Origin: Pseudidiomarina andamanensis
GTDB lineage: Bacteria > Pseudomonadota > Gammaproteobacteria > Enterobacterales > Alteromonadaceae
DNA: 32,000 nt
NCBI RefSeq assembly: GCF_009734345.1
Contig: NZ_CP032551.1
Location: 1,800,001-1,832,000 of the forward strand
Direction: 5' to 3'
The notes under the pieces were generated by a model, which searched no databases, was not told the DNA's origin, and saw only the letters and a program-made list of their open reading frames with translations. Shown here one piece after another: positions 490-31,209 of this stretch. The translations under genes and the position numbers were made by a program. Position 1 is the first letter of the stretch, and each line of letters begins with the position of its first letter.

Positions 490-1192
490 ATTAGAGGGGT
501 TACTGGCTCAAGTTCAAGAACAGCAGCGTTTGCTTCAACAGCAGCTCGACTATGAACATCACGCTATGCTTGGCCTAGCGAAACGATTGTGGGTGCAACA
601 AGAGCAAGAGAGAGCCTATTTCGCTCGAGAGCTACATGATGATATTGGCCAGCAACTCATCGCTCTGAGGGCGCAAATAGATTCATTGCAAAACCCAAAG
701 TTCAAACAAATACAAGATGGGTTACTACAAGTTATTGAAAGTACGAGAAGTCTTTCACGTATTATGCATCCAACGATTCTCTTTGATCTTGGTTTGGAGC
801 GTGCTCTTGCCTGGCTCAATCGACAACTACTAGAGCCAGTTGGCGTGCAGTTGCAGAGTCGTTACGATGTATCGATTGAACTTCCAAATGCCGTCAGCTT
901 GTTGCTCTTCAGAATTGCGCAAGAATCGTTCGTGAATATTGTGAAGCATGCTCGAGCGAATCAAGTTGAATTGGCAATCATAGAAACATCTCAAGGCATT
1001 GCGATAAAAATCAAAGATGATGGTATTGGGTTTGACGCAAAAACAGCTGTCCGTGGTATCGGTTTGCAAAGCCTAAAAGATAGAGCTTTAGCCTGTGGTG
1101 CAACCTTAGACATAAAATCAATACCGAAAAGCGGTTGCGAAATAAGTCTATTGTTGCCTTATCAACAACTCTCCGAGCTTGGCGACCTATGA
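443..1192 (+). CDS. Sensor histidine kinase core (HisKA_3 + HATPase_c, NarX/DegS/LiaS type), no transmembrane segment
   Basis: H-box ELHDDIGQQLIALR; N-box FRIAQESFVNIVKHA; G1 IKDDGIGF; G2 GIGLQSLKDRA. A coiled-coil-like Gln-rich N-terminus is present. An in-frame TGA (440-442) lies immediately upstream of the ATG. There is no obvious SD. Confidence 0.85.
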   Translation: MKNSNKPIEHSLEVDELEGLLAQVQEQQRLLQQQLDYEHHAMLGLAKRLWVQQEQERAYFARELHDDIGQQLIALRAQIDSLQNPKFKQIQDGLLQVIESTRSLSRIMHPTILFDLGLERALAWLNRQLLEPVGVQLQSRYDVSIELPNAVSLLLFRIAQESFVNIVKHARANQVELAIIETSQGIAIKIKDDGIGFDAKTAVRGIGLQSLKDRALACGATLDIKSIPKSGCEISLLLPYQQLSELGDL

Positions 1193-1815
1193 TTTCGCTC
1201 ATTCTAGCTGACGATCACACGATGGTGCGACAAGCCATTGCAACGACCTTAAAAGCGACGGGATTATTTACAATCGAATATGAGTGTAGTGACGGTTTAG
1301 AGTTAGTTGAAGCTGCGCTAAAAACTCCCGTTGATATCGTTTTAATGGATATTTCTATGCCGAGAATGAATGGTTTTGCAGCACTTGAAAAGCTTCTTCA
1401 TCATCGGCCACAAAGTAAGGTCATTATTCTAAGTATGCATAGCGAGCCTGAATATGTTGAAGCAGTAAAATTAGCAGGTGCTCGGGCTTACATTCAAAAA
1501 GATGCTCCTTCAGAGCAACTTATTCAAGTGATACAAGATGTTGCTGCTGGTAAGTTTTATTTTCCTCTTAAAACAAACCAATCATTGGCATCACTATCCT
1601 CACCTACCAATCCAATAGAGGGATTAACACGGCGCGAACGGGAAATTTTCTATTTAGTCGTTGCCGGGCGAAGCAACAAGCAAATTGCACAATTACTCTC
1701 ATTGTCAGCAAAAACCATTGAAAACCACCGTACTAATATCTTCAAAAAACTGAAAGTTACTTCCACTGTAGAACTCATCCATTTTGCAGCCAAAAATGGA
1801 TTACTTGAACCTTAA
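1189..1815 (+). CDS. NarL/FixJ (LuxR-type HTH) family response regulator
   Basis: Receiver motifs are ILADDH, VLMDISMP (phospho-Asp), ILSMH and KDA. The C-terminal GerE/LuxR HTH reads LTRREREIFYLVVAGRSNKQIAQLLSLSAKTIENHRTNIFKKL. I prefer the ATG at 1189 because it forms an ATGA overlap with the kinase stop (1190-1192). The track's 1135 start would add 18 non-receiver residues. Confidence 0.9.
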   Translation: MISLILADDHTMVRQAIATTLKATGLFTIEYECSDGLELVEAALKTPVDIVLMDISMPRMNGFAALEKLLHHRPQSKVIILSMHSEPEYVEAVKLAGARAYIQKDAPSEQLIQVIQDVAAGKFYFPLKTNQSLASLSSPTNPIEGLTRREREIFYLVVAGRSNKQIAQLLSLSAKTIENHRTNIFKKLKVTSTVELIHFAAKNGLLEP

Positions 1816-10121: not shown

Positions 10122-10616
10122 ATGGCAATCGCGTGGAAGCCTGTTGAACCCAGTTATAAAACTTATCTTCAACTCATCGTACTTATCGACATGCTCATAC
10201 TCGCAGCTATCGGTATCGGTATTTATGTGTTTGTCCCCACCACCAGTTGGTTACCAAACCCGCTCTGGTTCGGTATTCCATGGGTTGCTTTGACGCTGTT
10301 TTTTGGATTGTTTTGGTCCGCGCGCCGATTCCAATTTACCGCCTATGCTCGCACTGCTGAAGCGATGTATTTACGCCGTGGTGCACTTTGGCGATTAACG
10401 CGTGCCGTTCCTTTGAACCGCATACAACATGTTGAAGTTCGGCAAGGCTTCATTGAGCGCACGCTCGGTCTAGCCCATTTGACACTTTATACAGCAGGGA
10501 GCGGCGGTGCCGATTTAAGTATTCCTGGCTTAAAACTCAATGATGCTGAGCAGATGAAAGCATCTCTGGTGAATACAATTGCTGACGAACCGACAGAAGA
10601 TGATGACCATGCCTGA
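10122..10616 (+). CDS. Membrane protein with bacterial PH domain (bPH_2, YdbS-like)
   Basis: Two N-terminal TM helices, then YLRRGALWRLTRAVPLNRIQHVEVRQGFIERTLGLAHLTLYTAG, which is the pattern I associate with PF03703. Confidence 0.7.
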   Translation: MAIAWKPVEPSYKTYLQLIVLIDMLILAAIGIGIYVFVPTTSWLPNPLWFGIPWVALTLFFGLFWSARRFQFTAYARTAEAMYLRRGALWRLTRAVPLNRIQHVEVRQGFIERTLGLAHLTLYTAGSGGADLSIPGLKLNDAEQMKASLVNTIADEPTEDDDHA

Positions 10617-12090
10617 GCTAACTTGGCAACGCACGCCACTTCTTACCATCGGCTTCTTTATTGCAAAAGAAGTACGTCATTTGATTCGTAATATCACGAA
10701 TTTATTGCCGGTACTCGCCGTGATATTTGTCAGCAACAGTGCGTGGTTATCTTATGCGGTTGGAGGTGGTTACCTCGCCTTCATTATTATTAGTGCCATT
10801 CTTAATCACCACTTCTTTTTGTACGCGCTTGCTGATGATGCGGTGCATCTGCGTACAGGCGTATTCGGAAAGAAAAGCCTGACCTTAAAATATGAGCGCA
10901 TTCAACAAGCAGAGATCGACCAAAGTTGGTATTTCCGACCATTCGGTTTAGTTATTTTACGCGTGGATAGTGCCGGTTCGGCTGGAAAAGAAGTCGAGAT
11001 TCCAGGCTTATCCATCGACGCCGCTCAGCAGCTTCGGCAACGTATGCTGTCACACGCACACAGCAACCATCGCGAACCAGAGGCAGGAGAAATTGAACTG
11101 AAAAGTGAAGCGTCTCCAGAGACTGAGGTTGTCTTCTCGTTAAAAGAAATCATCCGCGCTGGCATTATGGACAATAAGATCTTCGTGCTGCTGGCTGTAC
11201 TCATCTATCCGCTCTCGCAAACCGATGTTTTAGAGGAAACTGTGGTGCCTTGGCTAGAGGCCAATATCGCGTTTCTTGAAGAAAGTTTATGGTTAAACGT
11301 CGCACTCATTGTAGCCGCGCCGATAGTACTCTTTGTGCTAGCTATCGGGGTCACATTAGTACGTTATTACAATCTGCACTTCAGTATCCTCAACAAGCGC
11401 TATCAAGCAAAAGCTGGTTTATTTACCATTCGCACCGTCAGTTTTCGCTATCAAAAGCTACAGCGAGTTCAACTTCGACAAAACCTACGAGGGCGTTTAC
11501 TCAAGCGCTTTAGTCTGCGAGTGAGTCAACTACAACCCTCCGCTCACGCCCAGCAGCAAACAGGTAACGCATCGTTCATTTTACCGGTACTGACCCAATC
11601 ATTGGTCAGCAATCTCTGTCAATGGTTGCAACTGCCGCGCCATACCAATCTGAATTGGCAGCGGATTCCTTTTATCGCGTTGCTGAGTCCGTCATTTTGG
11701 ATTGCGCTTGTTGCCCCTAGCGCTTTGGCGGCTGCTTACTTTAATGACGTGCCACTGACATGGAGTTTGCTCGGTGCCGTTTCGCTTTGGCTGATGTTGC
11801 AAAGTTACGCTATTGCTCGCTGGCGCAACTACGGTTTTACCTTCGATAACGGCTGGTTGGCGATAAAGCGCGGCGTGTTTGGGCGTAAAGAAAATTGGTA
11901 TCCATTGTACAAAGTACAGCAAATTGATGTTTACCAATCGCCCTGGCTACGATTATTAGGTTATGCCGATATTCTTGTGCATACCGCCGCCGGTGCTGAA
12001 GTGATTAAGTATCAGCCGGCGCAGCTAGCCAAACAACTGCAACAGGATTGGACGGGACAAATCGGACGAAATCACCAGCGCTGGTTGTAA
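10609..12090 (+). CDS. Membrane protein with three bPH_2 repeats (YdbT-like)
   Basis: The unit TM-pair + ...Y.RIQ..E..Q....R..GL..L.V.. occurs three times. The ATG at 10609 overlaps the upstream stop by 8 nt. The track's 10579 start is also possible. Confidence 0.7.
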   Translation: MPELTWQRTPLLTIGFFIAKEVRHLIRNITNLLPVLAVIFVSNSAWLSYAVGGGYLAFIIISAILNHHFFLYALADDAVHLRTGVFGKKSLTLKYERIQQAEIDQSWYFRPFGLVILRVDSAGSAGKEVEIPGLSIDAAQQLRQRMLSHAHSNHREPEAGEIELKSEASPETEVVFSLKEIIRAGIMDNKIFVLLAVLIYPLSQTDVLEETVVPWLEANIAFLEESLWLNVALIVAAPIVLFVLAIGVTLVRYYNLHFSILNKRYQAKAGLFTIRTVSFRYQKLQRVQLRQNLRGRLLKRFSLRVSQLQPSAHAQQQTGNASFILPVLTQSLVSNLCQWLQLPRHTNLNWQRIPFIALLSPSFWIALVAPSALAAAYFNDVPLTWSLLGAVSLWLMLQSYAIARWRNYGFTFDNGWLAIKRGVFGRKENWYPLYKVQQIDVYQSPWLRLLGYADILVHTAAGAEVIKYQPAQLAKQLQQDWTGQIGRNHQRWL

Positions 12091-12114: not shown

Positions 12115-13524
12115 CTAATTAATACTCCCAACCCGTTTCATGGCGCCCCAATGATGTTTTCGTCCACGTGCCCATTGCCAAAAGCCGCGCATACGCCACC
12201 AACTATTGAGCTGTCGGTAACCAAAGTTTTCCAAAACAGCGACCACGATAAGTTGTGCGAGTGCGCGATTTGAAGAGTAGGTTTTGAATGTCAGTTCTTC
12301 GAGTATTAACGAAAAAACGGACATTAATACACCAAATCCAAAAGCTGCGACAATAAAGGTGAGGGTAAAGCTGATACTTACCGCTCCGGTGACATAAAAG
12401 TATGCCGATAACGCATAGGCCAGTAACTCAAGTAAAGGTCCGAGCCCCTCAAACAGCAACATAAACGGATAGGCAAGCCAGCCAACGGTGCGCCCGCGCA
12501 ACGAGAAAAATAACCGACTGTTGCGGGTTAAGCTTTCAAGAAGACCGCGCTGCCATCGAATTCGCTGATTTTTTAAAGTTTGTAAATCTTCCGGTGCTTC
12601 GGTCCAACAAACCGGATCAGGTATGAAAGCAATATGATACGGCTTATTCTTCTGTTGAAAGTGGCGATGTAACCTGAGCACGAGTTCCATATCTTCACCA
12701 ATGGTTGCCGTTTGATAGCCACCGCAATCTAACACTGCGCGCTTTTGAAATAAGCCAAAAGCACCAGAGATAATCAACATACCGTTGAGTGGCGACCACC
12801 CCATTCGGCCGAACAAAAATGCTCGCAAGTATTCAATCACTTGGAATTTCGCAAGCCACGACTTAGGTAATCCGACTTGGGTTAGCAAGCCATGACGGAC
12901 TTGTGAGCCATTCGCGATTCGAATCGAACCACCTACCGCAATCGTTTCAACACGATCAATAAAAGGTCGGACAATTCGCTGCAAACTATCTCGTTGTAAA
13001 ATCGAATCGGCATCAACTGCACAAAAGAGCGGATATTTTGAAGCATTAATGCCCGCATTCAACGCATCGGCTTTTCCGCCGTTCTGTTTATCAATTACCC
13101 GTAACTGGGGATATTCCTCGGAGCGATAGACACCACGAATCGCTTGCGTTTTCAGTTGCTGACGATAGGCCTCAGTGTGCAAATGGAGATTAAATGCTTG
13201 TTGAAGATGTTTTAAGGTGTCGTCCTTTGACCCATCATTGACAACAATGACCTCATAGCGCGCATAATCAAGCTGCAAGATACTCTTCACTGAAGCGACG
13301 ATACTCGCCGATTCATTGTAAGCCGGCACTAAAACCGACACAGGTGGCAACAGCGGACCATAACTTTCTGGTAAAAGCGTGTTGTCGTAATCTTCCATAT
13401 AACGTCGAATCGCGCGATAGCTCATGACGTTGAGCAAGAAATAAATGGCGGTTAACCCTAAAAAGTACACAATGAATAAAAGCTGAGCGATCTCGAGCCA
13501 AGTTAAATGACTATAAGACGCCAT
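12115..13524 (-). CDS. Processive family-2 glycosyltransferase (PgaC/NodC/BcsA-like membrane polysaccharide synthase)
   Basis: Motifs: VSVLVPAYNE, VIVVNDGSKDDT, AVDADS (DxD), IGEDMEL, NQRIRWQRG (QxxRW). There is one N-terminal TM and about four C-terminal TMs. The ATG at 13524 (MASYSHLTWLEI) overlaps the upstream gene's end by 14 nt. Confidence 0.85.
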   Translation of the reverse strand: MASYSHLTWLEIAQLLFIVYFLGLTAIYFLLNVMSYRAIRRYMEDYDNTLLPESYGPLLPPVSVLVPAYNESASIVASVKSILQLDYARYEVIVVNDGSKDDTLKHLQQAFNLHLHTEAYRQQLKTQAIRGVYRSEEYPQLRVIDKQNGGKADALNAGINASKYPLFCAVDADSILQRDSLQRIVRPFIDRVETIAVGGSIRIANGSQVRHGLLTQVGLPKSWLAKFQVIEYLRAFLFGRMGWSPLNGMLIISGAFGLFQKRAVLDCGGYQTATIGEDMELVLRLHRHFQQKNKPYHIAFIPDPVCWTEAPEDLQTLKNQRIRWQRGLLESLTRNSRLFFSLRGRTVGWLAYPFMLLFEGLGPLLELLAYALSAYFYVTGAVSISFTLTFIVAAFGFGVLMSVFSLILEELTFKTYSSNRALAQLIVVAVLENFGYRQLNSWWRMRGFWQWARGRKHHWGAMKRVGSIN

Positions 13525-14569
13525 ATCGAATCTCCGTCGCGACTTGCTGCAGCATTGTTTTCGCGTACTCATCCGTTAAAGCTTCAGAGCGCTTCAACAA
13601 GGCATCAATGTCAGCGTTGGGCTGTTCGAGCAAGCCCTCGGCAGCCCGATAACGAACCCACCATGAGCTATCACACAGAAGCGTCCACAAAAGCTCGCTA
13701 TCCTGCGGTTCAGCTAAGCGCGCTAGCGCAGCTGTTGCTTGTATGCGTATCGGATTGATATCGCTGCGCGCATAAACTCGAACGATTGGTAATAATTTAG
13801 GAGTCGAAATAAGGGCCAGAGTCGCAGCGACCACGTCGACATTATCCGAAAATTTATCAAGAATTTGTCGGATAAACGTTTCTGACATCGGCAACTCCAT
13901 CCCTTTTATCACCCTCAGTAGATACCCTGCATGTTGCGGTGAGTTGGCCAAAATACTCTGACTAGTCGCTTCACTGAGAAGTTTTGGTGGGCATTCGCGC
14001 AAGATGGTCACGAGCCTTTCAGGCGCAATGAAATGAACGTTTTTTAACAACAAGGGTAGGGCTGTTTTTGCGTCATAGCGCATCAGCGCTCGCAGTGCCG
14101 TGAGAATAACCATACTGCTGTGGTGATCCGTCAACTCTGCCAAGCGAATGACCGCTTTGGCTGACATGTGCTGCAAATCGCCCAACGCGATACAACAGGC
14201 AATCAGATGCCGCGTATTATCCGATTTCATAACGCCTAAAATCCGCGGTTCAAACTTTAGCGTATCGGCCAGTCGTTGCAGGCCATCATCTGCATCGCCG
14301 CGCACATATTGATGCATCTGTGACCACTTCTGAATCACCCACAAAAAGATATCAATATTGGTCTTAAACTCTTTCGCGCGAATAGGATCTAATTCAATCG
14401 CTTCACGTTTATCGCAGGCTCGAAATAGAACCATTTGCCAATAATGTTTACGCTGTTCAATTTCGTCCTGGCGCTGTTGATGTTGACGTCGTAAATAGAA
14501 CAACACAACCAACGTAAAAAGAACCGCAACTAGAATGAATAGCGCAATGGAAGAAATAATGGTGAACAT
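13511..14569 (-). CDS. Single-pass membrane protein with a cytoplasmic alpha-helical repeat (HEAT/ARM-like) domain, function unknown
   Basis: N-terminal TM IISSIALFILVAVLFTLVVLFYL followed by RRQHQQRQ. The remainder is Leu/Ala-rich helical repeats (e.g. ...ILTALRALMRY.., ..VVAATLALIS.., ..RIQATAALARLAEP.., ..WWVRYRAAEGL). The ATG at 14569 is preferred. The track start at 14596 is a TTG. Confidence 0.65.
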   Translation of the reverse strand: MFTIISSIALFILVAVLFTLVVLFYLRRQHQQRQDEIEQRKHYWQMVLFRACDKREAIELDPIRAKEFKTNIDIFLWVIQKWSQMHQYVRGDADDGLQRLADTLKFEPRILGVMKSDNTRHLIACCIALGDLQHMSAKAVIRLAELTDHHSSMVILTALRALMRYDAKTALPLLLKNVHFIAPERLVTILRECPPKLLSEATSQSILANSPQHAGYLLRVIKGMELPMSETFIRQILDKFSDNVDVVAATLALISTPKLLPIVRVYARSDINPIRIQATAALARLAEPQDSELLWTLLCDSSWWVRYRAAEGLLEQPNADIDALLKRSEALTDEYAKTMLQQVATEIRYGVL

Positions 14570-14573
14570 TTGC

Positions 14574-15347
14574 TCAGAAGTGATAGCGAACACCAAATTG
14601 CGTCCCTATTCGGTCGTAATAATCACCTTGTTGTTGAAAGCTAAACGCCCAACGCCAATCCCAACTTTGATTCAATTCATGTAAACCGTACAACGCAATA
14701 CCTTTAACGCTGGTTGCAACAATCTCATTTGCGTTGATTTTTTCGATTTCATCACCCGCATTTAATGCAACTGTCCAGTGACTGCGTTTGCGGTAGTAAT
14801 AACTCAAGCTGGCTTGGTGCGACAATCCATCACCGTCGCCAGCTTGTAGCTGTTCATACCGAATTCTATAAGCCCAGCGCCAGCGATTAATATACCGCTC
14901 TAAACCTAGACTATACCCTTGGCTAGTACTACTCGACCAACTGTTACGATGCACACCAATACTGGCGATGTAGCCATTACCTAATTCACGTGATGCATAA
15001 CCGTTGACACTATATTCAGGCCGCACGCGCTTTGTAGAGGAATAGGACACTTCAAGTTGGCTTTGCCAGAGTTCACTGATTCGAAAATAACTGCCGACGT
15101 ACCATTCATTATCAAATTGTGAGAAGCGCTCCGTTCGTTGGTAGCGCGCATAACCCAGCCAATCGGGTGATAATTGCGTTTCGTAATTCAAATAACCAAG
15201 TGACCAATCGGTGTAATGACCACTTAGCGAATCTTGGCCAGCACCAAATTCGAATGAACTGTTGGTATCGCTACTCGCTAAAATTGGCGTCGACATGGTG
15301 ACGATGAACGTCGCAACAACAAAGTTAAACCATCCAGATTTAGTCAC
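14574..15347 (-). CDS. Small outer-membrane beta-barrel protein (YaiO-like by size and architecture)
   Basis: Signal peptide FNFVVATFIVTMSTPILA-SS. The body has alternating aromatic/polar beta-strand patterns, and the terminal residue is an aromatic ...GVRYHF. At 257 aa it matches the size of E. coli YaiO. The GTG start forms a GTGA overlap with the upstream stop. Confidence 0.65.
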   Translation of the reverse strand: MTKSGWFNFVVATFIVTMSTPILASSDTNSSFEFGAGQDSLSGHYTDWSLGYLNYETQLSPDWLGYARYQRTERFSQFDNEWYVGSYFRISELWQSQLEVSYSSTKRVRPEYSVNGYASRELGNGYIASIGVHRNSWSSSTSQGYSLGLERYINRWRWAYRIRYEQLQAGDGDGLSHQASLSYYYRKRSHWTVALNAGDEIEKINANEIVATSVKGIALYGLHELNQSWDWRWAFSFQQQGDYYDRIGTQFGVRYHF

Positions 15348-15739
15348 TCCTGCGAGCTCCTCTTTATTTGCAGTAGTTTCCGAATACGCGCCTGTAACTC
15401 TTTGGGTTGAAATGGCTTAATGACATAGTCATTCGCTCCTTCATCCAACGCACTGGCAATATCATCTTCATCTTGCAGGTCCGTTAATACCAGGATCGGG
15501 ATATGATTAATCTGCGTTGTACGACGAATCCAACGAAGCAGTTGACGACCGGTAATTATCGGCAATAAAAGATCAAGAATAATTAAATGATAGGAGGGGT
15601 TCTCACGAAGTTCCTTTTGGGCATAGTCGCCATCACTGACCGTCTTCACCTGATAGCCCTCTCGACTCAGCAAAAACTCTAACAACTCACGCAACGTTTG
15701 ATTATTTTCAACAATCAAAATTTGTTTTGTTACCGACAT
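15344..15739 (-). CDS. Stand-alone CheY-like receiver protein
   Basis: Motifs: ILIVENN, LIILDLLLP (phospho-acceptor Asp), ILVLTD (Thr), YVIKPF (Lys). There is no output domain. The ATG at 15739 is preferred over the TTG at 15742. Confidence 0.85.
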   Translation of the reverse strand: MSVTKQILIVENNQTLRELLEFLLSREGYQVKTVSDGDYAQKELRENPSYHLIILDLLLPIITGRQLLRWIRRTTQINHIPILVLTDLQDEDDIASALDEGANDYVIKPFQPKELQARIRKLLQIKRSSQE

Positions 15740-15818
15740 CAAATAACCGCTTCCTAAATCGCTCGCATAGACTTAAAACTAGCAGAGTAGGAACGTTCGC
15801 TCAAATTTTGAAAACTTT

Positions 15819-18386
15819 TTAATTTTCAGAAACTAGATTAATGTTTTCGATGAGTCGTTGTTGCCATTGCGGAATTGGCGCTGGTTTACCAAACAGGTAA
15901 CCTTGGAACTTTTTGCATCCGAGTGCTTTAAGGTGTTCAAGCTGCTTTTCGGTTTCTACGCCTTCAGCGATGACAGAAAAATTTAAATTTTCGCCCAAGC
16001 CTAAAATGGTTTTTATAATAATTTCGTCGTTCGCATCAGCTAACATATCACGCACAAATGATTGGTCGATTTTGAGCTGTTGTAACGGTAGTTTTTTTAA
16101 ATAGGCCAACGAGGCATAGCCCGTGCCGAAATCGTCGAGCGAAAACCGTACGCCAAGGTCGCCTAATTTACACATGCGTTTAACGGTCACTTCGATATTG
16201 TCGATAAGCATACTTTCGGTGATTTCAAGCTCCAACAAACCGCGCGGCAGGCCCGCTTCGTGTAGACAATGTTCAACTTGTGCGACAAAACCACCGTGAC
16301 GAAATTGTCGCGGACTAATATTCACCGCCAGCGGAATACTTTTCAACGCGTCAATTTGCTGCCAATCCCGCAATGTTCGGCAAGCTTGCTCAATCACCCA
16401 GGTGCCGATGGGAATAATTAAGCCACTGGCTTCGGCTATTGGGATAAATTCGGCAGGAGCAATCGTGCCTAAATCAGGATCGGTCCAGCGCAACAATAAT
16501 TCACCTGCAATAACCTCGTTACGCGAATTGACTTGAGGTTGCAGATAGACATCAAGCTCTTGATGCTGCACCGCTTTACGCAACGCTGATTCAATCAACA
16601 TACGCCGACTAATCGCTTCTTGCATGGCTGGATTGAAAAAGCGGATGGATCCACCCCCTTGTGATTTAGCCTCCGAAATTGCCAAATCCGCATTTTTGAG
16701 CAAGCCCGCAGCATCACCTTGGCTATCGGAAAACATGGTAATCCCAATACTCGCTGAGGTTGTATGCTTGATATCGCCCAGATCAAACGGTTGCGCCAAA
16801 ACATCCAATATTTCGCGAGCCCAATTTCGCACTTCCATAACCGCCTGATCCGCATCTTGGCTGACATCTTCGAGAATCACCAAAAAGTCATCCGACCCTA
16901 ATCTTGCGACGGTGTCGGTTTCATCAACGCGCGCGCGAATGCGTTGAGCGACTTCCTGTAACAGCTTATCGCCCGCAGCATGACCAAAGGTTTCATTAAT
17001 AACCGTAAAATGGGTGAGATCAATTGCCACCAGTGCGCCTTCGTAGCCCGTACGTGCGGCACTGGTGACCGCGTGCTCCAAGTTTTGGAGCAGCAGTTTA
17101 CGATTGGCGAGCCCAGTAATATTGTCGTAATACTCCAATTTGTTGAGCGATTCCTTAATATGAATATGCTCGGTAATATCTGTTGAGATTCCACAAAGAG
17201 CGTAGACCTGATCGTGGGTATCTTTTAGCGGGATTTTCACGGATAAAAAGTGTCGAACATCGCCGCTTTGTGTTGCGTTATCTTCTTCCTCTGAAACGCG
17301 CAAACCTTGCTCGATAACACGGCGATCGTTCTCGCGTAAATGTTGGCATGTTTTTTCGTCAAAAAATGCGGCATCGGTTTTGCCGATAATTTGCTGCGGT
17401 GTCGTACCTAAATAATCACAAACTTTTTTATTGGCATATTGATAACGAAGCTCGCGATCTTTAATAAAAATATAGGCTTCAACTGAATCTAAAATGGTAT
17501 TGAGCTTTAACTCACTATGCGCGAGTTCAAGTGTGCGCTCATGTATTCGACGACGTAACAGGAGTGACACACCGATCACTAATAGCAAAGCACTCGCAAG
17601 CCCTATCACCAACGACCAAGGGAATGGCTCTGGTGCGCTAGGATTGGCGCGCCACTTTTTTAAAGTTTCGTACAATGGCGATTGAGGATCTTGTTGCCAA
17701 TCACTCAAATATTCATCGATTTTATCGAGTACAGGTTGAAGATCAGCGCGGGTTGCGACGACAAATAATCGTGCTGGCTGGAACATGACAGGGGTTGGCT
17801 CTAAGCCTAAATCTCGAGCTTTAATATCCCCATATAAATGATTTGCGGCCACAGCTTCAGCTCGCCCATCAACGACCGCCTGAAAACCCGCATCAAACGA
17901 ATCGACTGGGATTAATGTGACATTTAAGCCGAAATTTTTCGTAATGTCAGCAAGGTAGCTTTCTTGAATCGAATTATCGAGAACCGCGATTCGTACGTTA
18001 TCTAAATCAAGAAGCGTGGTGACTTTTAATGTGCTCTTGCCGTACAACTGTGACCATGAGTGAAGAAAGGGGATTTCATGAAAGCGGAATGTTTCATCGC
18101 GTTTCGTACTTAAAGCAACATCCGGCATTAAATCAATGTCACCACTTTGCAGTAACGATAAACATTGATTCCAGTTACAAGGTACCGCTTCGATGCGCCA
18201 GCCTTCGCGGCTCGCGATTTGCATCAATAATTCGCCAAATATCCCGGATATTTGGTCATCTTTCACCAATATTTTGGGTGGGTTTTCATAAACCCCGACG
18301 CGCAATGTTATTGGTTGTGAGAACGCGACTTGAACCCATACAAGTACGGCGACACTCGCAACGAACAGCCCCCAAAACTTTCGCAA
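15819..18386 (-). CDS. Periplasmic SBP(type 3)-TM-PAS-GGDEF(degenerate)-EAL signalling protein, predicted c-di-GMP phosphodiesterase
   Basis: The signal/TM is followed by an amino-acid-binding-protein-like domain (LRVGVYENPP...DLMPDV...), a second TM (WSLVIGLASALLLVIGVSLLL) and a PAS domain. The GGDEF domain has the A-site RLGSDDF, and DETD occupies the RxxD I-site position. The EAL domain has ELLLRW, NISPRQF, ELEITES, DDFGTGYASL, EGVETE and QGYLFGKP. The start codon is a TTG. Confidence 0.88.
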   Translation of the reverse strand: MRKFWGLFVASVAVLVWVQVAFSQPITLRVGVYENPPKILVKDDQISGIFGELLMQIASREGWRIEAVPCNWNQCLSLLQSGDIDLMPDVALSTKRDETFRFHEIPFLHSWSQLYGKSTLKVTTLLDLDNVRIAVLDNSIQESYLADITKNFGLNVTLIPVDSFDAGFQAVVDGRAEAVAANHLYGDIKARDLGLEPTPVMFQPARLFVVATRADLQPVLDKIDEYLSDWQQDPQSPLYETLKKWRANPSAPEPFPWSLVIGLASALLLVIGVSLLLRRRIHERTLELAHSELKLNTILDSVEAYIFIKDRELRYQYANKKVCDYLGTTPQQIIGKTDAAFFDEKTCQHLRENDRRVIEQGLRVSEEEDNATQSGDVRHFLSVKIPLKDTHDQVYALCGISTDITEHIHIKESLNKLEYYDNITGLANRKLLLQNLEHAVTSAARTGYEGALVAIDLTHFTVINETFGHAAGDKLLQEVAQRIRARVDETDTVARLGSDDFLVILEDVSQDADQAVMEVRNWAREILDVLAQPFDLGDIKHTTSASIGITMFSDSQGDAAGLLKNADLAISEAKSQGGGSIRFFNPAMQEAISRRMLIESALRKAVQHQELDVYLQPQVNSRNEVIAGELLLRWTDPDLGTIAPAEFIPIAEASGLIIPIGTWVIEQACRTLRDWQQIDALKSIPLAVNISPRQFRHGGFVAQVEHCLHEAGLPRGLLELEITESMLIDNIEVTVKRMCKLGDLGVRFSLDDFGTGYASLAYLKKLPLQQLKIDQSFVRDMLADANDEIIIKTILGLGENLNFSVIAEGVETEKQLEHLKALGCKKFQGYLFGKPAPIPQWQQRLIENINLVSEN

Positions 18387-18438: not shown

Positions 18439-18900
18439 TTAAAACCAGCGCCGAACCTTTTTTCGATAAAAGATAAATTCATCGCCAAATTTTTCCTCTA
18501 GAATGCGCTCTTCTGGAATAATCTGATAGCGATTTATGAATAAAATATAGACAACTAGCCATAACAACGCAGGCAAGCTCGCCAACCACACGCCCCAACC
18601 AGCCAAAGCTAATAAAAATCCAAGATACATCGGGTTGCGCGTGAAACGATAAATACCACTTGCCACAAGAGCACTACTGGCGTTCGGGTTCATCGGGTTT
18701 GCGGTGGTTTTCGCCTGGCGAAATGCAACAACGCCAGCGACAGCAATAAATGAACCTGCCGTCACTAAAGCAAAAGCGAGTGCTTTTGCATCTGTAAAAT
18801 GCCAAGGTTCCATCGGTATCAACTTGGCTGTGAAAGCCATGAGGCCGGCAATAACGAGCACCACGACAACTGGTGGAATTTTTAACTCTAAAGTTCGCAT
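18439..18900 (-). CDS. Isoprenylcysteine carboxyl methyltransferase (ICMT)/phospholipid methyltransferase family membrane protein
   Basis: About 4 TM helices. Motif GIYRFTRNPMYLGFLLALAGW, and C-terminal EERILEEKFGDEFIFYRKKVRRW. SD AAGGAG lies upstream. Confidence 0.8.
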   Translation of the reverse strand: MRTLELKIPPVVVVLVIAGLMAFTAKLIPMEPWHFTDAKALAFALVTAGSFIAVAGVVAFRQAKTTANPMNPNASSALVASGIYRFTRNPMYLGFLLALAGWGVWLASLPALLWLVVYILFINRYQIIPEERILEEKFGDEFIFYRKKVRRWF

Positions 18901-24397: not shown

Positions 24398-24760
24398 ATG
24401 AACCTCTCAAAAGATCTCATGGCGGCCTCTTCCACACCCATCGTTTTGGGCGTTATTGCTGAAGGCGAAACCTATGGCTATGAAATTGTAAAACGCGTTG
24501 AAGAGCTCTCAGGTGGTGCCCTTCAGTGGACTGACGGCATGTTGTACCCGTTACTTCATCGACTCGAAAAACAAGGCTATTTAGGCTCCCGCTGGCTGGT
24601 CGGTGACTCCAATAGAAAGCGCAAATACTACGCTATTACCGACGAGGGTATTGCCGCTTTGAATGAACAACGCCAGCAATGGCAAGTAATTAACAATGCG
24701 CTCAACCAAATTTGGCGCGATATGACACGGAGCGATGACCATGATGTCCAATTCGTCTAA
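24398..24760 (+). CDS. PadR-family transcriptional regulator
   Basis: Winged-helix motif ETYGYEIVKRVEELSGGALQWTDGMLYPLLHRLEKQGYLGSRW....KRKYYAITDEG. Confidence 0.88.
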   Translation: MNLSKDLMAASSTPIVLGVIAEGETYGYEIVKRVEELSGGALQWTDGMLYPLLHRLEKQGYLGSRWLVGDSNRKRKYYAITDEGIAALNEQRQQWQVINNALNQIWRDMTRSDDHDVQFV

Positions 24761-26099
24761 TCAACCCTTTGAACTTGAGCAAAACATTGCGCAGTGGCGC
24801 GAATTTGTCCTTCGGCGTGCCGCTATTCTTGAAGAAGATGCTGATGAACTCGAAAGCCATTTGCGCGACCAAATTGACGCGTTATTAGAGCGCGGGTTGC
24901 ACGCCGATGAAGCGTTCCTTGTCGCCACTAAACGCATTGGTAATCTTGAGGCCGTATCGAAAGAGTATGCTGAAGTGCATGCGGGGAGACTGTGGCGCAA
25001 TATTGTTTGGGGCACTGATAAACCGTCATGGAACACCGACTTTTATCTTGCCTTACTGCTGGCGTGTTGCGCGGCGGTGCTATTTCACTTGCCCAAACTG
25101 TTTGGAGTCACGCCCGAAACCCACGAATGGGTATTTGCACGCAATTTCACCTTGTTCTGCTTGCCTATGCTCGGCGCTTATTACGTGGTGAAGCATCAAC
25201 TTGGGCAACGCGGCTGGTACTGGTTAGTTGGTGCTTCTCTGGGAATTGCTACGGTGATAAATTTGATGCCCTGGCAAGCCGAGTCGGCAACACAATCGCT
25301 AAGTCTAATTCATCTCCCCCTATTACTCTGGTTTCTAGTTGGCGTTCTCTACACCGGCAACTGGTGGCAAACCGATGGGCGACGCATGGACTTTGTTCGC
25401 TACTCGGGTGAATACGCTATTTATTTTGTATTGCTAGCGCTGGGTGGTATGACGTTAATCGTCTTAACGAATGGCATGTTTTGGTTGATTGGCATGAACA
25501 TCGAGTGGTTTACGCATCAATGGCTACTACCTAGTGGTGTTATGGGAGCCGTGATTATTGTCGGCTGGTTAGTTGAAGCAAAACAGGGCGCGGTTGAGAA
25601 TATGGCACCTGTACTGGCTCGCATTTTCACACCTTTATTCACCTTATTGATGCTGACGTTTTTAGTGATCATGTTCGTCACCGGGCGCAGTTTTGATGTT
25701 GAACGAGAGCTTTTAATTGGTCTTGATGCGCTGTTGATTGTGGTGTTGGGCTTGGTCTTGTACGCGGTGTCGTCTCGCGAATCAAACAAAGCACCTAGCA
25801 TTTTTGATCGCCTACAATGGCTGCTCATTGTGTCGGCATTATTGGTTGATGTGTTGGCATTAGTCGCTATCGGTGGCCGCATTGCCGACATGGGCTTTAC
25901 CGCCAACCGTACCGCAGCAATGGGCGAAAACCTCATATTATTGGTTAGTTTAAGCGGTTACGCTTGGTTGTACTGGCGGTTTATACGCGGCCAACGTTCA
26001 TTTGCTCTACTGGAGCAATGGCAAACTCGGTTCATTCCCGTGTACGCCATTTGGGCTGCAATTGTCGTGTTTCTATTCCCACTGGTGTTTGGGTTCTAG
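24735..26099 (+). CDS. Polytopic membrane protein (about 10 TM) with an N-terminal cytoplasmic helical domain, coupled to PadR; possibly DUF4153-like
   Basis: It overlaps the padR end by up to 26 nt. The N-terminal roughly 90 aa soluble helical region (ELESHLRDQIDALLERGLHADEAFLVATKRIG) resembles the 'permease prefix'/DUF1700-type domains found next to PadR genes. The remainder is hydrophobic. Confidence 0.7.
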   Translation: MTMMSNSSNQPFELEQNIAQWREFVLRRAAILEEDADELESHLRDQIDALLERGLHADEAFLVATKRIGNLEAVSKEYAEVHAGRLWRNIVWGTDKPSWNTDFYLALLLACCAAVLFHLPKLFGVTPETHEWVFARNFTLFCLPMLGAYYVVKHQLGQRGWYWLVGASLGIATVINLMPWQAESATQSLSLIHLPLLLWFLVGVLYTGNWWQTDGRRMDFVRYSGEYAIYFVLLALGGMTLIVLTNGMFWLIGMNIEWFTHQWLLPSGVMGAVIIVGWLVEAKQGAVENMAPVLARIFTPLFTLLMLTFLVIMFVTGRSFDVERELLIGLDALLIVVLGLVLYAVSSRESNKAPSIFDRLQWLLIVSALLVDVLALVAIGGRIADMGFTANRTAAMGENLILLVSLSGYAWLYWRFIRGQRSFALLEQWQTRFIPVYAIWAAIVVFLFPLVFGF

Positions 26100-27934: not shown

Positions 27935-29767
27935 TTATTCAACCGTAACCGATTTTGCCAAGTTGCGCGGCTGATCCACGTCGGTGCCTTTGATGATGGC
28001 AACGAAGTAGGAGAGCAACTGAAGCGGAATGGTATATACAATTGGTGCAATTAGTTCGTCACAGTGCGTGACGTTGATGACGCGCATGCTGTCGTCGCCC
28101 TTGAAGTGGGCGTCTTTGTCGGCAAACACATACATGATGCCGCCACGAGCACGAACTTCTTCAACATTTGATTTAAGCTTCTCAAGCAATTCGTCGTTTG
28201 GTGCCACCACAATCACCGGCATATCAGCGTCAATGAGTGCCAATGGGCCGTGCTTCAATTCACCAGCTGCATATGCTTCCGCGTGAATATAAGAAATTTC
28301 TTTAAGTTTTAACGCACCTTCCATCGCAATGGGGTATTGCGTGCCACGGCCTAAGAACAAGCTATGGAACTTGTCCGCAAACTCAGGCGCTAAGGCTTCA
28401 ATGCGGTCACTTAACAATAACGCTTCTTCGAGCTTAGCTGGCAACGTTTTCAGCGATTTCAACACAGCTTCTTGTTGCGAAGCTGGCATACCGCGGAACT
28501 GACCTATGGCCAAGGTTAACATCAACAGCCCGACTAACTGGGTGGTGAATGCTTTGGTTGATGCCACGCCAATCTCGGTGCCGGCACGCGTCATATACGC
28601 TAAGTCTGATTCGCGCACCATTGATGAGGTACTGACGTTACAAATGGTCAGGCTGCCTTTGTAGCCTAACTCTTTGCTTAATCGCAGTGCCGCCAAGGTG
28701 TCCGCGGTTTCGCCAGACTGTGAAATGGTGACCAACAAGCTATTGGGATGCACGTGCGATTGGCGATAACGAAATTCAGAGGCAATTTCAACGTTACATG
28801 ACACGCCCGCCATAGATTCGAGCCAATAGCGCGCGACCATGCCCGCATGGTACGACGTACCACACGCCACAATTTGGACGTGCTCGATGTCTTTTAACAG
28901 CTCTAATGAGCCATTGCCGAACACATCGTCTGCTACATGACCATCAACAATACGGCCTTCTATAGCGTTGCGCACTGCGCTTGGCTGCTCATGAATTTCT
29001 TTGAGCATAAAGTGACGATACTCACCTTTACCACCAGCGTCATAGTTACCGTCTGATTCGTGAATTTCGCGTTCAACACGTTCGCCCTTAGCGTCATAAA
29101 CCTTCACTTCGGTGCGGTTAATGTCAGCCATGTCGCCTTCTTCGAGGTACATGAACTTTCGTGTTACGGGTAACAATGCGAGTTGGTCTGAGGCGACAAA
29201 GTTCTCGCCAATACCTAAACCAACTACCAACGGGCTACCCGAGCGAGCAACGACCAAACGACCAGGTTCACGGCAATCCATCACGACGGTACCGTAGGCG
29301 CCTTCAAGTTGTCGCACGGTGGCTTGCACAGCTTCAAATAAATCATCGTGGGTTTTACGTTCGTGATGCACTAAGTGACAAATCACTTCGGTGTCGGTAT
29401 CTGAGGCAAAGGTATAGCCTAAGCCTTTTAACTGCTCACGTAATTTATCGTGGTTTTCGATAATGCCGTTATGCACAACGGCAATGCAGTCTTCTGAAAT
29501 ATGCGGGTGAGCGTTTGCTTCGGTAACGCCGCCATGGGTTGCCCAACGGGTATGTGCGATACCAGTTGTGCCCGATAGTGGGTGCTCACCAACGGCATCT
29601 TTTAATGCCTGAACTTTACCAGTGCGGCGAACGCTCTCGATTACGCCTTGTTCGTTTAATACAGCCAAACCCGCAGAATCGTAACCGCGGTATTCAAGAC
29701 GCTTTAAACCTTCAATGAGAATTTCGCTAATACGGCGCTCTGAAGTTGCGCCAACAATTCCACACAT
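27935..29767 (-). CDS. glmS: Glutamine--fructose-6-phosphate aminotransferase
   Basis: N-terminal MCGIVGA nucleophile, two SIS domains and the C-terminal ...[10 protein letters not shown]. Length is 610 aa. Confidence 0.97.
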
Positions 29768-29772
29768 ATCGC

Positions 29773-31137
29773 TTATCCTTTTTTCACTGGACGTTGCCAG
29801 CCACTAATATTCCGTTGTTTACCGCGCGCAACCGCTAGCTCTTCGTCTTCGACACTTTTGGTCACCGTTGACCCAGCGCCTACCGTTGCGTTTTTGCCAA
29901 CGCGAACCGGTGCAACTAATGAGCTATTTGAGCCGATAAATGCGCCATCATCAATCTCGGTCACAAATTTATTTACACCGTCGTAATTACAGGTGATAGT
30001 GCCCGCGCCTATGTTCACGCCAGCACCAATTTGTGCGTCACCAAGGTAGGTGAGGTGGCTCGCTTTTGAGCCTTTACCCATGCGCGTTTTCTTAATTTCG
30101 ACAAAGTTGCCAACTTGCACACCTTCGGCTAAGTCAGCACCTGGGCGTAAACGCGCAAACGGGCCAATGGCACAGTTCTCAGCTAACACAGCGTCTTCAA
30201 TGACACTATTGGCTTTCACGCGTGAACCGGCGCCAATTTTACAATTACGCAGTACACAGTTGCTTTCGATAACGACGCCTTCACCAAGTTCCACTCGGCC
30301 TTCAAAAATAACATTCACGTCAACCACAACGTCGTTGGCAATGATCACTTCACCGCGCACATCCACACGCGCTGGGTCCATCAATGTAGCGCCGTCTAAC
30401 ATGAGCTGTTCTGCTTGACGAGCTTGATAGGCACGCTCTAGTCCAGCTAGTTGCACGCGATTATTCGCACCTTCAACTTCGCTAATCGCTTGTGGCTGCG
30501 CCGTTGCAATGGTCACACCTTCGTCGGCTGCCATCGCCACAATATCGGTGAGATAGTATTCGCCTTGGGCGTTGTTGTTCGACAGATTGCTTAGCCAGCG
30601 TTTCAACGCAGCGCTGTTTACGGCCATCATGCCAGTGTTCACTTCGGTAATGGCTAATTGCTCTGAATTTGCGTCTTTTTGCTCAACAATACCTACGACA
30701 GCGCCATTCACATCGCGCACAATACGCCCATAACCGCTAGGATCAGGCAAGGTTACTGTCAACAACGCCAATTCGGTATTGGCCGCTGCGTCTAGTAAAA
30801 CGCGTAGCGTTTCTGTACGCGTAAGCGGAACGTCGCCGTATAAAATCAATACCGTTTCATTATCATCCAAATACGGCACGACTTGTTGCACAGCGTGGCC
30901 AGTACCTAATTGTTCGGCTTGCTCAACAAAATTCAATTGCTGCCCAGCAAGTTTATCCATTAATACATCGCCACCATGGCCATAAATAACGTGCACATGC
31001 GCAGGTGTTAAGGTGCGCGCGATATCAATCACGTGTTGAACCATCGGTTTATGGGCAACCGGATGCAGCACTTTCGGCAATGCCGAACGCATACGTGTGC
31101 CTTTACCTGCGGCGAGTACAACAACACTCAGAGACAT
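29773..31137 (-). CDS. glmU: Bifunctional UDP-N-acetylglucosamine pyrophosphorylase / GlcN-1-P acetyltransferase
   Basis: Motif [12 protein letters not shown], with a left-handed beta-helix hexapeptide repeat C-terminus. The ATG at 31137 has SD GGAAGGA. The track's 31161 start adds 8 aa. Confidence 0.95.
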
Positions 31138-31209
31138 GAATCCTTCCGTTTCTGTATTCAAAAAAGTTAATGGGCTATTTTAATGCTGTTTACAACAAAT
31201 TAACAGGCG

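Follow-up and report, generated by a model that had tools for sequence, protein, structure and literature searches.

Four adjacent minus-strand genes of Pseudidiomarina andamanensis, encoding in order a receiver, a YaiO-family outer-membrane barrel, a transmembrane (TM) HEAT-repeat protein and a GT2 membrane synthase, probably constitute a compact, phosphorylation-controlled, PNAG-like synthase-dependent exopolysaccharide machine. It is present in a stripped-down form in the window, the whole 32,000-nucleotide stretch of contig NZ_CP032551.1 that was analysed. The first-pass annotation had proposed a minimal synthase-dependent exopolysaccharide system of five genes under c-di-GMP control. The synthase signature of the GT2 and the co-conservation of the module bear out the core of that proposal; the number of genes and the c-di-GMP control are not supported. 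A literature search returned no experimental description of the operon, in agreement with the earlier statement that the architecture is experimentally uncharacterised. The operon is widespread, yet unstudied in the literature found.

The features are, in window coordinates:

12115..13524, minus strand: GT2 membrane synthase, PgaC-like, 469 aa (Pfam, NCBIfam, motifs, TM segments)
13511..14596, minus strand: single-pass inner-membrane HEAT-repeat protein, 352–361 aa (HEAT_2, AlphaFold model)
14574..15347, minus strand: YaiO-family outer-membrane beta-barrel, 257 aa (TIGR04390, PF19413, AlphaFold model)
15344..15739, minus strand: stand-alone receiver, OmpR/PhoB type, 131 aa (Response_reg, residue census, alignment)
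15776..15804, minus strand: promoter-like element TTGAGC-N17-TAGTTT (sequence and conservation in alignment)
15819..18386, minus strand: SBP-PAS-GGDEF*-EAL neighbour gene, outside the conserved module (Pfam, motifs, neighbourhood)

Gene order and conservation of the four-gene unit

An ORF check of the window found the five minus-strand ORFs at the coordinates given previously, and the Pfam and NCBIfam domain calls agree with the domains predicted for them. The operon genes are joined through start/stop overlaps. Two junctions described before, the GTGA overlap of the receiver and barrel genes and the 14-nt overlap of the HEAT and GT2 genes, are real and are reproduced by the gene calls of P. 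maritima. The start of the HEAT gene, placed earlier at 14569 after a 4-nt gap, is most likely at 14593/14596, where the gene would overlap the barrel gene by ~20 nt. A 360-aa form is the choice of gene callers, and its additional N-terminal residues FAITSEQ align with the Idiomarina homologues. Based on the syntenic, Pfam-annotated P. maritima locus, the flanking genes encode PEMT, ChaC, two bPH_2 proteins, DJ-1 and a TonB receptor.

For a neighbourhood survey 88 loci were collected, with 74 scorable loci from other species and denominators of 65–69 per feature. The GT2 gene is directly downstream of the HEAT gene in 62/69 loci, a small receiver is found upstream in 46/68, and a YaiO gene lies within 5 kb in 51/65. 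The complete order of the window is present in 33 of 65 loci. Hosts of the module include Gamma- and Betaproteobacteria, Nitrospira, Acidobacteria, Verrucomicrobia and others, and the flanking contexts are unrelated. Judged from gene order and sequence, the conserved unit is four genes, receiver–YaiO barrel–TM-HEAT–GT2, from 15739 to 12115 on the minus strand. The co-conservation of five genes envisaged at first is seen across many phyla for these four, but not for the SBP-PAS-GGDEF*-EAL gene.

Relatives carry additional components. In many of them the YaiO homologue has TPR repeats fused to its N-terminus, as in loci L025, L030 and L037, a CE4 deacetylase gene follows the GT2 gene in loci of the L033/L042/L080 type, and in some a second YaiO gene is accompanied by an OpgB-like Sulfatase-domain protein (NF009027, E 2e-7). 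By analogy with known systems, the TPR-barrel fusions, CE4 deacetylase and OpgB-like transferase are hallmarks of synthase-dependent export, and on the same comparison what the window contains is a PNAG-like architecture in reduced form. The description of the cluster as lacking canonical partner genes therefore applies to the window, but not to these relatives.

The encoded proteins

The GT2 has Glyco_tranf_2_3, Glycos_transf_2 and Chitin_synth_2 domains (Pfam/NCBIfam). Its motifs are DGS97, DAD171–173, GED276–278 and QRIRW320–324, and hydrophobic TM segments, one N-terminal and at least two C-terminal, lie either side of the catalytic domain. The motif residues are kept in 48–60 of 60 family members, with the exception of the variable second x of QxxRW, and there is a family-specific C-terminal signature, ENFGYRQLNSWWR...WGxMxR. 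Identity to E. coli PgaC is 28% over 354 aa (E 9e-30). The best NCBIfam match is PgaC_IcaA, yet the score of 147 bits is below the equivalog cutoff of 422 and the GT2 is therefore not a PgaC ortholog. The best solved-structure match is BcsA (4hg6/4p00), aligned over residues 27–384 (E 1e-8). By sequence, the GT2 is closest to PgaC and carries every processive-synthase motif. The motifs, the flanking TM helices and the whole-length alignment with BcsA and PgaC uphold the original assignment to the processive membrane synthases. Also as reported before, no match to PilZ, PgaA/B/D, BcsB/C, Alg or Pel domains was found by Pfam or NCBIfam in any of the five proteins.

The HEAT protein matches HEAT_2 (Pfam, E 1e-13) and has a TM helix at residues 8–26, followed by an Arg-rich juxtamembrane stalk. 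Its AlphaFold model (pLDDT 95.7) is a solenoid of ~9 helical hairpins, which is predicted to be cytoplasmic by the positive-inside rule. Homologues at E<=1e-30 comprise 1,837 representatives of 50%-identity clusters, including some giant multi-repeat HEAT proteins. A structure search gave generic alphaRep/ARM/PP2A-A matches only, and no functional analogue. HEAT solenoids are generic, which counts against the reading preferred below.

At the profile level the barrel is a member of the YaiO family, as first suspected, with 106 bits to TIGR04390 (cutoff 32) and 50.9 to PF19413 (cutoff 23.9). It has a signal peptide at approximately residues 1–25, short loops and a C-terminal Phe, with no TPR domain in the domain calls. 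The AlphaFold model (pLDDT 88) has 14 strands; the best TM-scores are to the 14-stranded OmpG, and the PgaA barrel 4y25 gives a TMq of 0.60. The exporters PgaA, BcsC and AlgE have 16–18 strands. The window barrel is smaller than these, which counts against its reading as an exporter.

The receiver consists of a Response_reg domain alone (Pfam, E 3e-26), without an output domain. It keeps D57, T87, Y106 and K109, and the Mg-site Asp13 is replaced by Asn. Among 48 operon-linked receivers, D57 is present in 46, K109 and T/S87 in all 48, and Asp13 in 44. The Mg-binding Asp13 position is His in the P. woesei receiver, therefore phosphorylation may be impaired in exactly this clade. Histidine kinase genes (PAS-HK or hybrid HK-Hpt) are found within 1.5 kb of the operon in 12/74 loci; no kinase gene is near the operon in the window.

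Regulatory input and alternative readings

The product of the gene 5' of the operon contains SBP_bac_3, PAS_4, GGDEF (E 2e-40) and EAL (E 8e-71) domains (Pfam), in the layout signal/TM, periplasmic SBP_bac_3, TM, PAS, GGDEF, EAL. The GGDEF domain has the degenerate motif GSDDF (residue 497) and no RxxD, and the full set of EAL catalytic residues is present. The protein is probably a c-di-GMP phosphodiesterase gated by a ligand. Only 2/74 loci have a GGDEF/EAL gene within 1.5 kb of the operon, and the adjacency of this gene is found only in the P. maritima/P. woesei clade, being absent from another Pseudidiomarina, Idiomarina, Rheinheimera and nearly all other loci. In P. woesei the GGDEF-EAL gene and the operon are separated by an opposite-strand gene of 345 aa. 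At best, therefore, the link to c-di-GMP is a local one. Since the adjacency is confined to one clade, sequence comparison indicates that the conserved regulatory input is two-component phosphotransfer, not c-di-GMP.

The EAL and receiver genes are 79 nt apart, and the gap holds TTGAGC-N17-TAGTTT directly 5' of the receiver gene. This element is kept in three Pseudidiomarina species, and in P. woesei the gene upstream of it is divergent. A generic consensus promoter scan did not flag it, so we infer a promoter from its conservation; the four-gene operon most likely has its own. No terminator was found between the EAL and receiver genes, therefore read-through co-transcription is possible in P. 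andamanensis. The restriction of the EAL gene to one clade, the intervening gene in P. woesei and the promoter-like element together speak against the earlier claim that the output is controlled by a dedicated c-di-GMP enzyme.

A five-gene system in which this enzyme sets a local c-di-GMP pool, and the HEAT protein, the GT2 or the degenerate receiver contains an unrecognised receptor for it, is unlikely. It would accord with the contiguity and common orientation of the five genes in the window and P. maritima, with the short, terminator-free gap 5' of the receiver gene, and the loss of Asp13 fits a move away from phosphorylation. Local c-di-GMP control also occurs in other synthase systems, NfrB being a cyclic-di-GMP-activated glycosyltransferase in the E. 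coli K-12 record. However, besides the 72/74 loci without such a neighbour, PilZ, MshEN, GIL and I-site modules are absent from the five proteins (Pfam, NCBIfam, motifs), the enzyme resembles a phosphodiesterase rather than a cyclase, and the conserved motifs in the HEAT protein and at the GT2 C-terminus are shared by the whole family and are not particular to this clade.

A GT2 product that stays in the periplasm or cell envelope, for example an OPG-like glucan or a membrane-anchored oligosaccharide, is also improbable; the barrel would then have another role, say in uptake or anchoring. The OpgB-like phosphoglycerol-transferase homologue of some relatives, the small size of the barrel and the lack of an encoded periplasmic scaffold in the window would suit such a product, but the GT2 is nearest PgaC, not OpgH, the barrel gene is translationally coupled within the operon, and the TPR-barrel fusions and CE4 deacetylases of relatives point to export. 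That the GT2 is simply a non-processive, lipid-linked transferase of O-antigen, LPS core or capsule synthesis, with unrelated neighbours, is highly improbable. The weak, N-terminal-only matches to non-processive GT2s (WcaA, PglI, EpsE) span ~50 residues of the GT-A fold, whereas BcsA and PgaC align over the full length and the GT2 has conserved QxxRW and GED motifs and conserved TM helices on either side. In addition, the HEAT, YaiO and receiver genes show strict co-conservation with the GT2, and no Wzx/Wzy/Wza or ABC-transporter genes were found nearby (window ORFs, P. maritima locus).

In the preferred reading, a phosphorylation-controlled exopolysaccharide machine, the GT2 would be a processive PgaC/BcsA/NodC-type inner-membrane synthase, polymerising a sugar nucleotide and passing the growing chain out by way of its own TM channel. 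A HexNAc is the probable sugar, because of the affinity of the GT2 to PgaC and the CE4 deacetylases in relatives. The HEAT protein, held near the synthase by its single TM helix, may be its obligate partner, filling the functional position of PgaD, and a docking platform for the stand-alone receiver. The receiver would pass a histidine-kinase phosphosignal that switches polymerisation on or off, from a kinase that would be unlinked in the P. andamanensis genome and operon-adjacent in other lineages. The YaiO barrel would be the outer-membrane exit, here without the periplasmic TPR scaffold of many relatives, and any control by the neighbouring phosphodiesterase would be a local add-on. No periplasmic bridge between synthase and barrel is encoded at the window locus, which counts against this reading.

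Relation to known systems

PgaABCD/IcaADBC, the system for poly-beta-1,6-GlcNAc (PNAG), has the nearest synthase. As in PgaABCD, the synthase gene adjoins that of a small membrane partner, in the position of PgaD, and there is a dedicated outer-membrane barrel; relatives of the operon add a PgaA-like fusion of TPR and barrel and a CE4 deacetylase like that of PgaB. The partner in the window is a 350-aa TM-HEAT solenoid, however, whereas PgaD has two TM segments, and the YaiO-family barrel is 14-stranded without TPR, whereas that of PgaA is 16-stranded. The window has no deacetylase, and a phospho-receiver is built into its operon. PgaCD is activated by c-di-GMP.

The uncharacterised E. coli locus yaiS-yaiP-yaiX(IS2)-yaiO likewise combines a YaiO-family barrel with a membrane GT2. 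The size of YaiO (257 aa) and its proximity to yaiP are as first described, and both barrels match TIGR04390 and PF19413. The likeness holds for the family profile but is otherwise remote: the barrels have no pairwise similarity by BLAST, and YaiP matches the window GT2 over the GT-A domain only, at 26% identity. The E. coli locus encodes neither a HEAT protein nor a receiver but includes genes for an acyltransferase and a deacetylase. E. coli NfrB-NfrA-YbcH is also a compact synthase-dependent system of GT2 and outer-membrane protein. NfrB carries a c-di-GMP-binding MshEN domain, which the window GT2 lacks, and the similarity is remote only (E 2e-5). NfrA, at 990 aa, has no similarity to the window barrel, and the HEAT protein and receiver are missing.

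The xagABCD operon of Xanthomonas and the xag-like sfz/sfb stalk clusters of iron oxidisers are biofilm/EPS operons centred, like this one, on a COG1215 GT2; Sfz3 (XagC-like) is a polytopic inner-membrane protein and Sfz4 (XagD-like) is glycosyl-hydrolase-like with an N-terminal lipoprotein-type signal (PMC3609779, PMC4643136, PMC8250860, PMC9040811). No Sfz3 or Sfz4 homologues are present in the 88 collected loci, and Sfz2 is only 22–25% identical to the operon GT2s, which indicates a different system, the comparison being made through Sfz2, Sfz3 and Sfz4. The cellulose synthase BcsA-BcsB differs in its PilZ, BcsB and BcsC, none of which is found in the five proteins, and in matching at only E 1e-8; the GT and TM core and the DxD, ED and QxxRW motifs are common to both.

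Gene content and distribution of the operon

The first-pass annotation had interpreted five minus-strand ORFs as a c-di-GMP-linked polysaccharide synthase cluster lacking canonical partner genes. All five ORFs are present where they had been placed, and the domains ascribed to them are all confirmed by Pfam and NCBIfam. Its reading of the cluster is partly borne out. The cluster is a real, conserved and probably synthase-dependent system; however, it is composed of four genes rather than five and c-di-GMP does not appear to be its conserved regulator.

Genes of the operon and of its upstream neighbour (window positions, strand, description, basis)
15819–18386, minus: gene with SBP_bac_3, PAS, GGDEF and EAL domains (Pfam, NCBIfam)
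15344–15739, minus: bare receiver gene (Pfam, NCBIfam)
14574–15347, minus: YaiO-family barrel gene (TIGR04390, PF19413)
13511–14596, minus: HEAT_2 repeats behind one TM helix (Pfam, NCBIfam)
12115–13524, minus: membrane GT2 gene (Pfam, NCBIfam)

The start of the HEAT gene, previously set at 14569, is more probably at 14593 or 14596, which gives an overlap of about 20 nt with the barrel gene. Gene callers pick this 360-aa form, and its additional residues align with Idiomarina homologues.

Synteny between the window and the Pseudidiomarina maritima contig extends over about 19 kb and includes the GGDEF-EAL gene and both flanks. The order receiver, YaiO, HEAT, GT2 is also kept in the HEAT-homologue neighbourhoods of Idiomarina piscisalsi, Rheinheimera, an uncultured gammaproteobacterium, a metagenomic Idiomarina-like contig and another Pseudidiomarina. 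In these five the genes overlap and the flanks are unrelated, and none has an adjacent GGDEF or EAL gene. The GGDEF-EAL gene, which had been counted as the fifth member of the cluster, is next to the operon in the window, P. maritima and P. woesei alone, and in P. woesei it is separated from the receiver gene by an opposite-strand gene for a 345-aa membrane protein.

Among genomes scanned at one per species, at least 473 have relatives. The best 80 loci were retained, and all their stop-to-stop ORFs were labelled by HMMs derived from the window proteins, leaving 74 loci that could be scored. GT2 is directly downstream of the HEAT gene in 62 of 69 loci and a small receiver is upstream of it in 46 of 68. 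The YaiO gene is directly upstream in 41 of 68 loci and within 5 kb in 51 of 65; the complete window gene order is found in 33 of 65. The hosts include Idiomarinaceae, Rheinheimera, Xanthomonadales, Burkholderiales, Gallionella, Methylococcales, Nitrospira, Acidobacteria, Verrucomicrobia and Anaeromyxobacter. Nitrospira is the sole lineage in which HEAT and GT2 are not adjacent. Its variant (collected loci L037, L041, L043, L060 and L078) has a hybrid HK-Hpt followed by one or more receivers and then HEAT; the YaiO protein, TPR-rich and 650 aa long, is encoded on the opposite strand, and GT2 is several kb away.

Synthase, HEAT protein and barrel

The GT2 carries the D, DxD, (T/G)ED and QxxRW motifs of processive synthases (DGS97, DAD171–173, GED276–278 and QRIRW320–324). 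These residues are kept in 48–60 of 60 family members, the exception being the variable second x of QxxRW. Hydrophobic segments at residues 15–33, 354–372 and 390–408 bracket the catalytic domain, as do the flanking TM helices that form the translocation channel of such synthases. Of the solved structures, BcsA is the best match over the full length, aligning over residues 27–384 with TM regions included. Among the E. coli proteins compared, the GT2 is much nearer PgaC (28% identity over 354 aa, E 9e-30) than YaiP (3e-8) or NfrB (2e-5). As in synthase-dependent EPS systems, an inner-membrane synthase and a dedicated outer-membrane β-barrel share one operon in the window.

The C-terminal signature ENFGYRQLNSWWR...WGxMxR of the GT2 is family-specific and highly conserved. 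It lies C-terminal to the last TM helix, in the cytoplasmic tail (window 12115–12270), and is a candidate for contacts with the HEAT protein or the receiver. The idea that this region holds a c-di-GMP motif peculiar to the clade was rejected. The Arg/Trp-rich tail is conserved across the whole family and is therefore no evidence for c-di-GMP binding.

The AlphaFold model of the HEAT protein (pLDDT 95.7) has a long helix at residues 2–51, made up of the TM segment plus a stalk, followed by approximately nine helical hairpins. Positive charges follow the TM helix and the solenoid is therefore placed in the cytoplasm. A structure search with this model and a PDB profile search gave matches to designed alphaRep/ARM proteins, importin and PP2A-A alone, none of them a functional analogue. 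Searched with a profile at E≤1e-30, a set of 1.84 billion cluster representatives yielded 1,837 matches, each standing for a 50%-identity cluster; this number takes in some giant multi-repeat HEAT proteins. Nearly all of the best 150 of these 1,837 matches are full-length, at about 350 aa. With a Lysobacter homologue as the query, the 120 close relatives listed included no Xanthomonas and no informative name.

The barrel belongs to TIGR04390 (106.1 bits against a cutoff of 32; protein residues 33–257 on profile positions 4–230 of 230) and to PF19413 (50.9 against 23.9). BLAST detects no similarity between it and E. coli YaiO, and its membership of the YaiO family is therefore at the profile level only. 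A signal peptide, a closed β-barrel in the predicted model and a C-terminal aromatic residue, the features expected of the family, are all present. The protein ends in VRYHF, and Phe is the last residue in 34 of 46 homologues. In the model, short loops connect 14 strands; the pLDDT is 88 overall and exceeds 90 within the barrel, while the N-terminal signal region is of low confidence. By TM-score the model is nearest to 14-stranded OmpG, and its TMq to the PgaA barrel is 0.60. The barrel is 89% identical to its P. maritima counterpart, and a PDB sequence search with it gave no match. A periplasmic TPR scaffold is absent from this 257-aa protein and its neighbours.

The known systems differ from this one to varying degrees. 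PilZ, MshEN, PgaA/B/D, BcsB/C, Alg and Pel domains were not found in the five proteins by Pfam or NCBIfam. The operon would work in the manner of PNAG synthesis, but it is set apart from the PNAG system by the GT2 score against the PgaC/IcaA equivalog TIGR03937 (147.3 bits, below the 422-bit cutoff) and by the missing PgaA, PgaB and PgaD. The domains of these, namely the TPR and 16-stranded porin of PgaA, the CE4 and GH-like domain of PgaB, and PgaD, were found neither in the five proteins nor in the neighbouring ones, and BLAST against the E. coli PgaA, PgaB and PgaD gave no match. The uncharacterised E. coli yaiS-yaiP-yaiX-yaiO cluster has the barrel family in common with the operon and nothing else. 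NfrB carries an MshEN domain, which the only remotely similar window GT2 does not. Xanthomonas xagABCD was rejected as the same system by way of Sfz2, Sfz3 and Sfz4, published xag-like proteins from the stalk clusters of iron oxidisers that served as proxies for XagBCD. Sfz2 has 22–25% identity to the operon GT2s. The XagC-like polytopic membrane protein Sfz3 and the XagD-like, glycosyl-hydrolase-like Sfz4 have no homologue in the collected loci, and xag therefore appears, through these sequence proxies, to be a different system. The library that could be searched holds no description of the YaiO family in such a role or of a HEAT-GT2 operon, and the system in the window is apparently uncharacterised so far.

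Receiver and neighbouring GGDEF-EAL gene

The conserved regulator of the operon appears to be the phospho-receiver rather than c-di-GMP. Among 48 operon-linked receivers, D57 is present in 46, T/S87 and K109 in all 48, and D13 in 44. The window receiver has D57, T87, Y106 and K109, but E12-N13 where Asp12/Asp13 would form the acidic Mg2+ pocket. A histidine kinase or hybrid kinase is located within 1.5 kb of the operon in 12 of 74 loci, and a GGDEF or EAL gene in 2 of 74. PAS-HisKA-HATPase kinases or Hpt-bearing hybrid kinases abut the operon six times as often as c-di-GMP genes do. The receptor modules considered for c-di-GMP were PilZ, a degenerate GGDEF I-site, MshEN and the PgaCD interface; no known receptor domain was found in the five proteins with Pfam and NCBIfam. 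One kinase was noticed in the window, a short HisKA_3/HATPase_c protein (249 aa, no obvious sensor domain) whose gene overlaps that of a NarL-type response regulator (443–1815, plus strand); no other was seen, and nothing connects this one with the orphan receiver.

The product of the GGDEF-EAL gene was compared with the EAL residues ExLxR, N, ExxE, DDFGTG, KxD, EGVE and QG and with the GGDEF motif GG(D/E)EF. The EAL residues are all present (ELLLRW629, NISP689, EITE721, DDFGTG751, KIDQSF772, EGVE808 and QGYL828). The GGDEF motif is degenerate, as GSDDF497, and there is no RxxD I-site. Because of this, and because the EAL catalytic residues are complete, the product is probably a phosphodiesterase only.

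A TTGAGC-N17-TAGTTT block (window 15804–15776) lies upstream of the receiver gene and is conserved in the window species, P. maritima and P. woesei. This conservation suggests that the operon has its own promoter. A generic promoter and terminator scan found nothing over the shuffled background and did not flag this block. On the other side of the GGDEF-EAL gene, 52 nt upstream and on the same strand, is a PEMT/ICMT-like methyltransferase gene (18439–18900, minus strand). This arrangement is kept in P. maritima, and the two genes may therefore form one transcription unit.

The Mg-binding residue 13 is Asn in the window receiver (15344–15739) and His in that of P. woesei (locus L009, 5821–6207); the other non-Asp cases among the 48 are one more His and one Ser. 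Both the window and P. woesei replacements fall in the small clade in which the GGDEF-EAL gene adjoins the operon. In the P. maritima/P. woesei clade control might have been rewired, as reflected in the degenerate Mg site of the receiver and in the phosphodiesterase gene that has newly come to lie beside the operon; this reading is drawn from three closely related genomes, with the receiver residues read in two.

Accessory genes, putative polymer and proposed mechanism

Fuller versions of the system are found in relatives. N-terminal TPR repeats are fused to long YaiO homologues in L025, L030, L037 and L008. A CE4 polysaccharide-deacetylase-domain protein of about 630 aa follows GT2 in nine loci, and a Sulfatase-domain protein of about 830 aa, with the phosphoglycerol transferase OpgB as best match, accompanies a YaiO gene in eleven. 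The commonest accessory gene, in 25 loci, encodes a protein of about 340 or 600 aa (for example L025 9416–11245 and L030 13281–14291) for which Pfam, NCBIfam and PDB sequence searches give no match; it is part of these fuller versions. The window has no TPR fusion, CE4, Sulfatase or ~600-aa accessory gene and therefore holds a reduced version; the minimal form of the system is a lineage-specific reduction.

Synthase-dependent export is typically marked by TPR-barrel fusions and CE4 deacetylases, and their presence in the relatives also points to a polymer of the N-acetylated hexosamine type. UDP-GlcNAc is likely the substrate class of the operon synthase. About 14 kb from the operon, GlmS-like (GATase and SIS) and GlmU-like (NTP_transferase and Hexapep) genes (27935–31161, minus strand) would make UDP-GlcNAc and are probably housekeeping. 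In Gallionella, a betaproteobacterium and a MAG, a second YaiO barrel gene is paired with a TPR/Sulfatase (OpgB-like) protein of about 820 aa beside the operon (L029 9425–10303, minus strand; L073; L084; L008 4098–7439). This pairing suggests that the polymer is decorated with phosphoglycerol or a similar group.

In the mechanism proposed, the GT2 would polymerise and translocate the glycan. The HEAT protein, anchored beside it, would be its obligate partner and would offer a surface on which the receiver docks; the receiver would pass on a kinase signal and so gate synthesis, and the YaiO barrel would be the exit for the chain. The analysis shows the domain identities, the intact motifs, the structural models, the co-conservation and the association with kinases; the identity of the polymer, the contacts between these proteins, the sign of the regulation and export by the barrel are the parts that we infer. 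To our knowledge, the well-studied synthase-dependent systems (cellulose, PNAG, alginate, Pel and NfrB) are all activated post-translationally by c-di-GMP. It is tentatively proposed, with rather more doubt than confidence, that the operon represents a broad synthase-dependent family in which a built-in phospho-receiver has replaced the usual c-di-GMP receptor and acts on the synthase via a membrane-anchored HEAT adaptor, the minimal form exporting through a scaffold-less 14-stranded YaiO barrel. Cellulose, PNAG, alginate and Pel would then be joined by a fifth archetype. A widespread system that has a stand-alone phospho-receiver, paired with a HEAT protein, as its sole conserved regulator would be a second way of gating a processive synthase, and a function would be assigned to the YaiO barrel family and to the bacterial HEAT family with its 1,837 cluster representatives. 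The operon family is present in environmentally important biofilm formers, including Nitrospira, Gallionella, Lysobacter and marine Idiomarinaceae, and the polymer made by it may therefore be a matrix component that is common but has gone unrecognised. With only four genes, the Pseudidiomarina version is compact enough to be reconstituted directly.

Elsewhere in the window, Pfam gives no match at E≤1e-5 for a 454-aa ORF (24735–26099, plus strand). A pair of overlapping genes (10122–12090, plus strand), both encoding bPH_2 (YdbS/YdbT-like bacterial PH domain) membrane proteins, is convergent with the GT2 gene and is kept in P. maritima and P. woesei.
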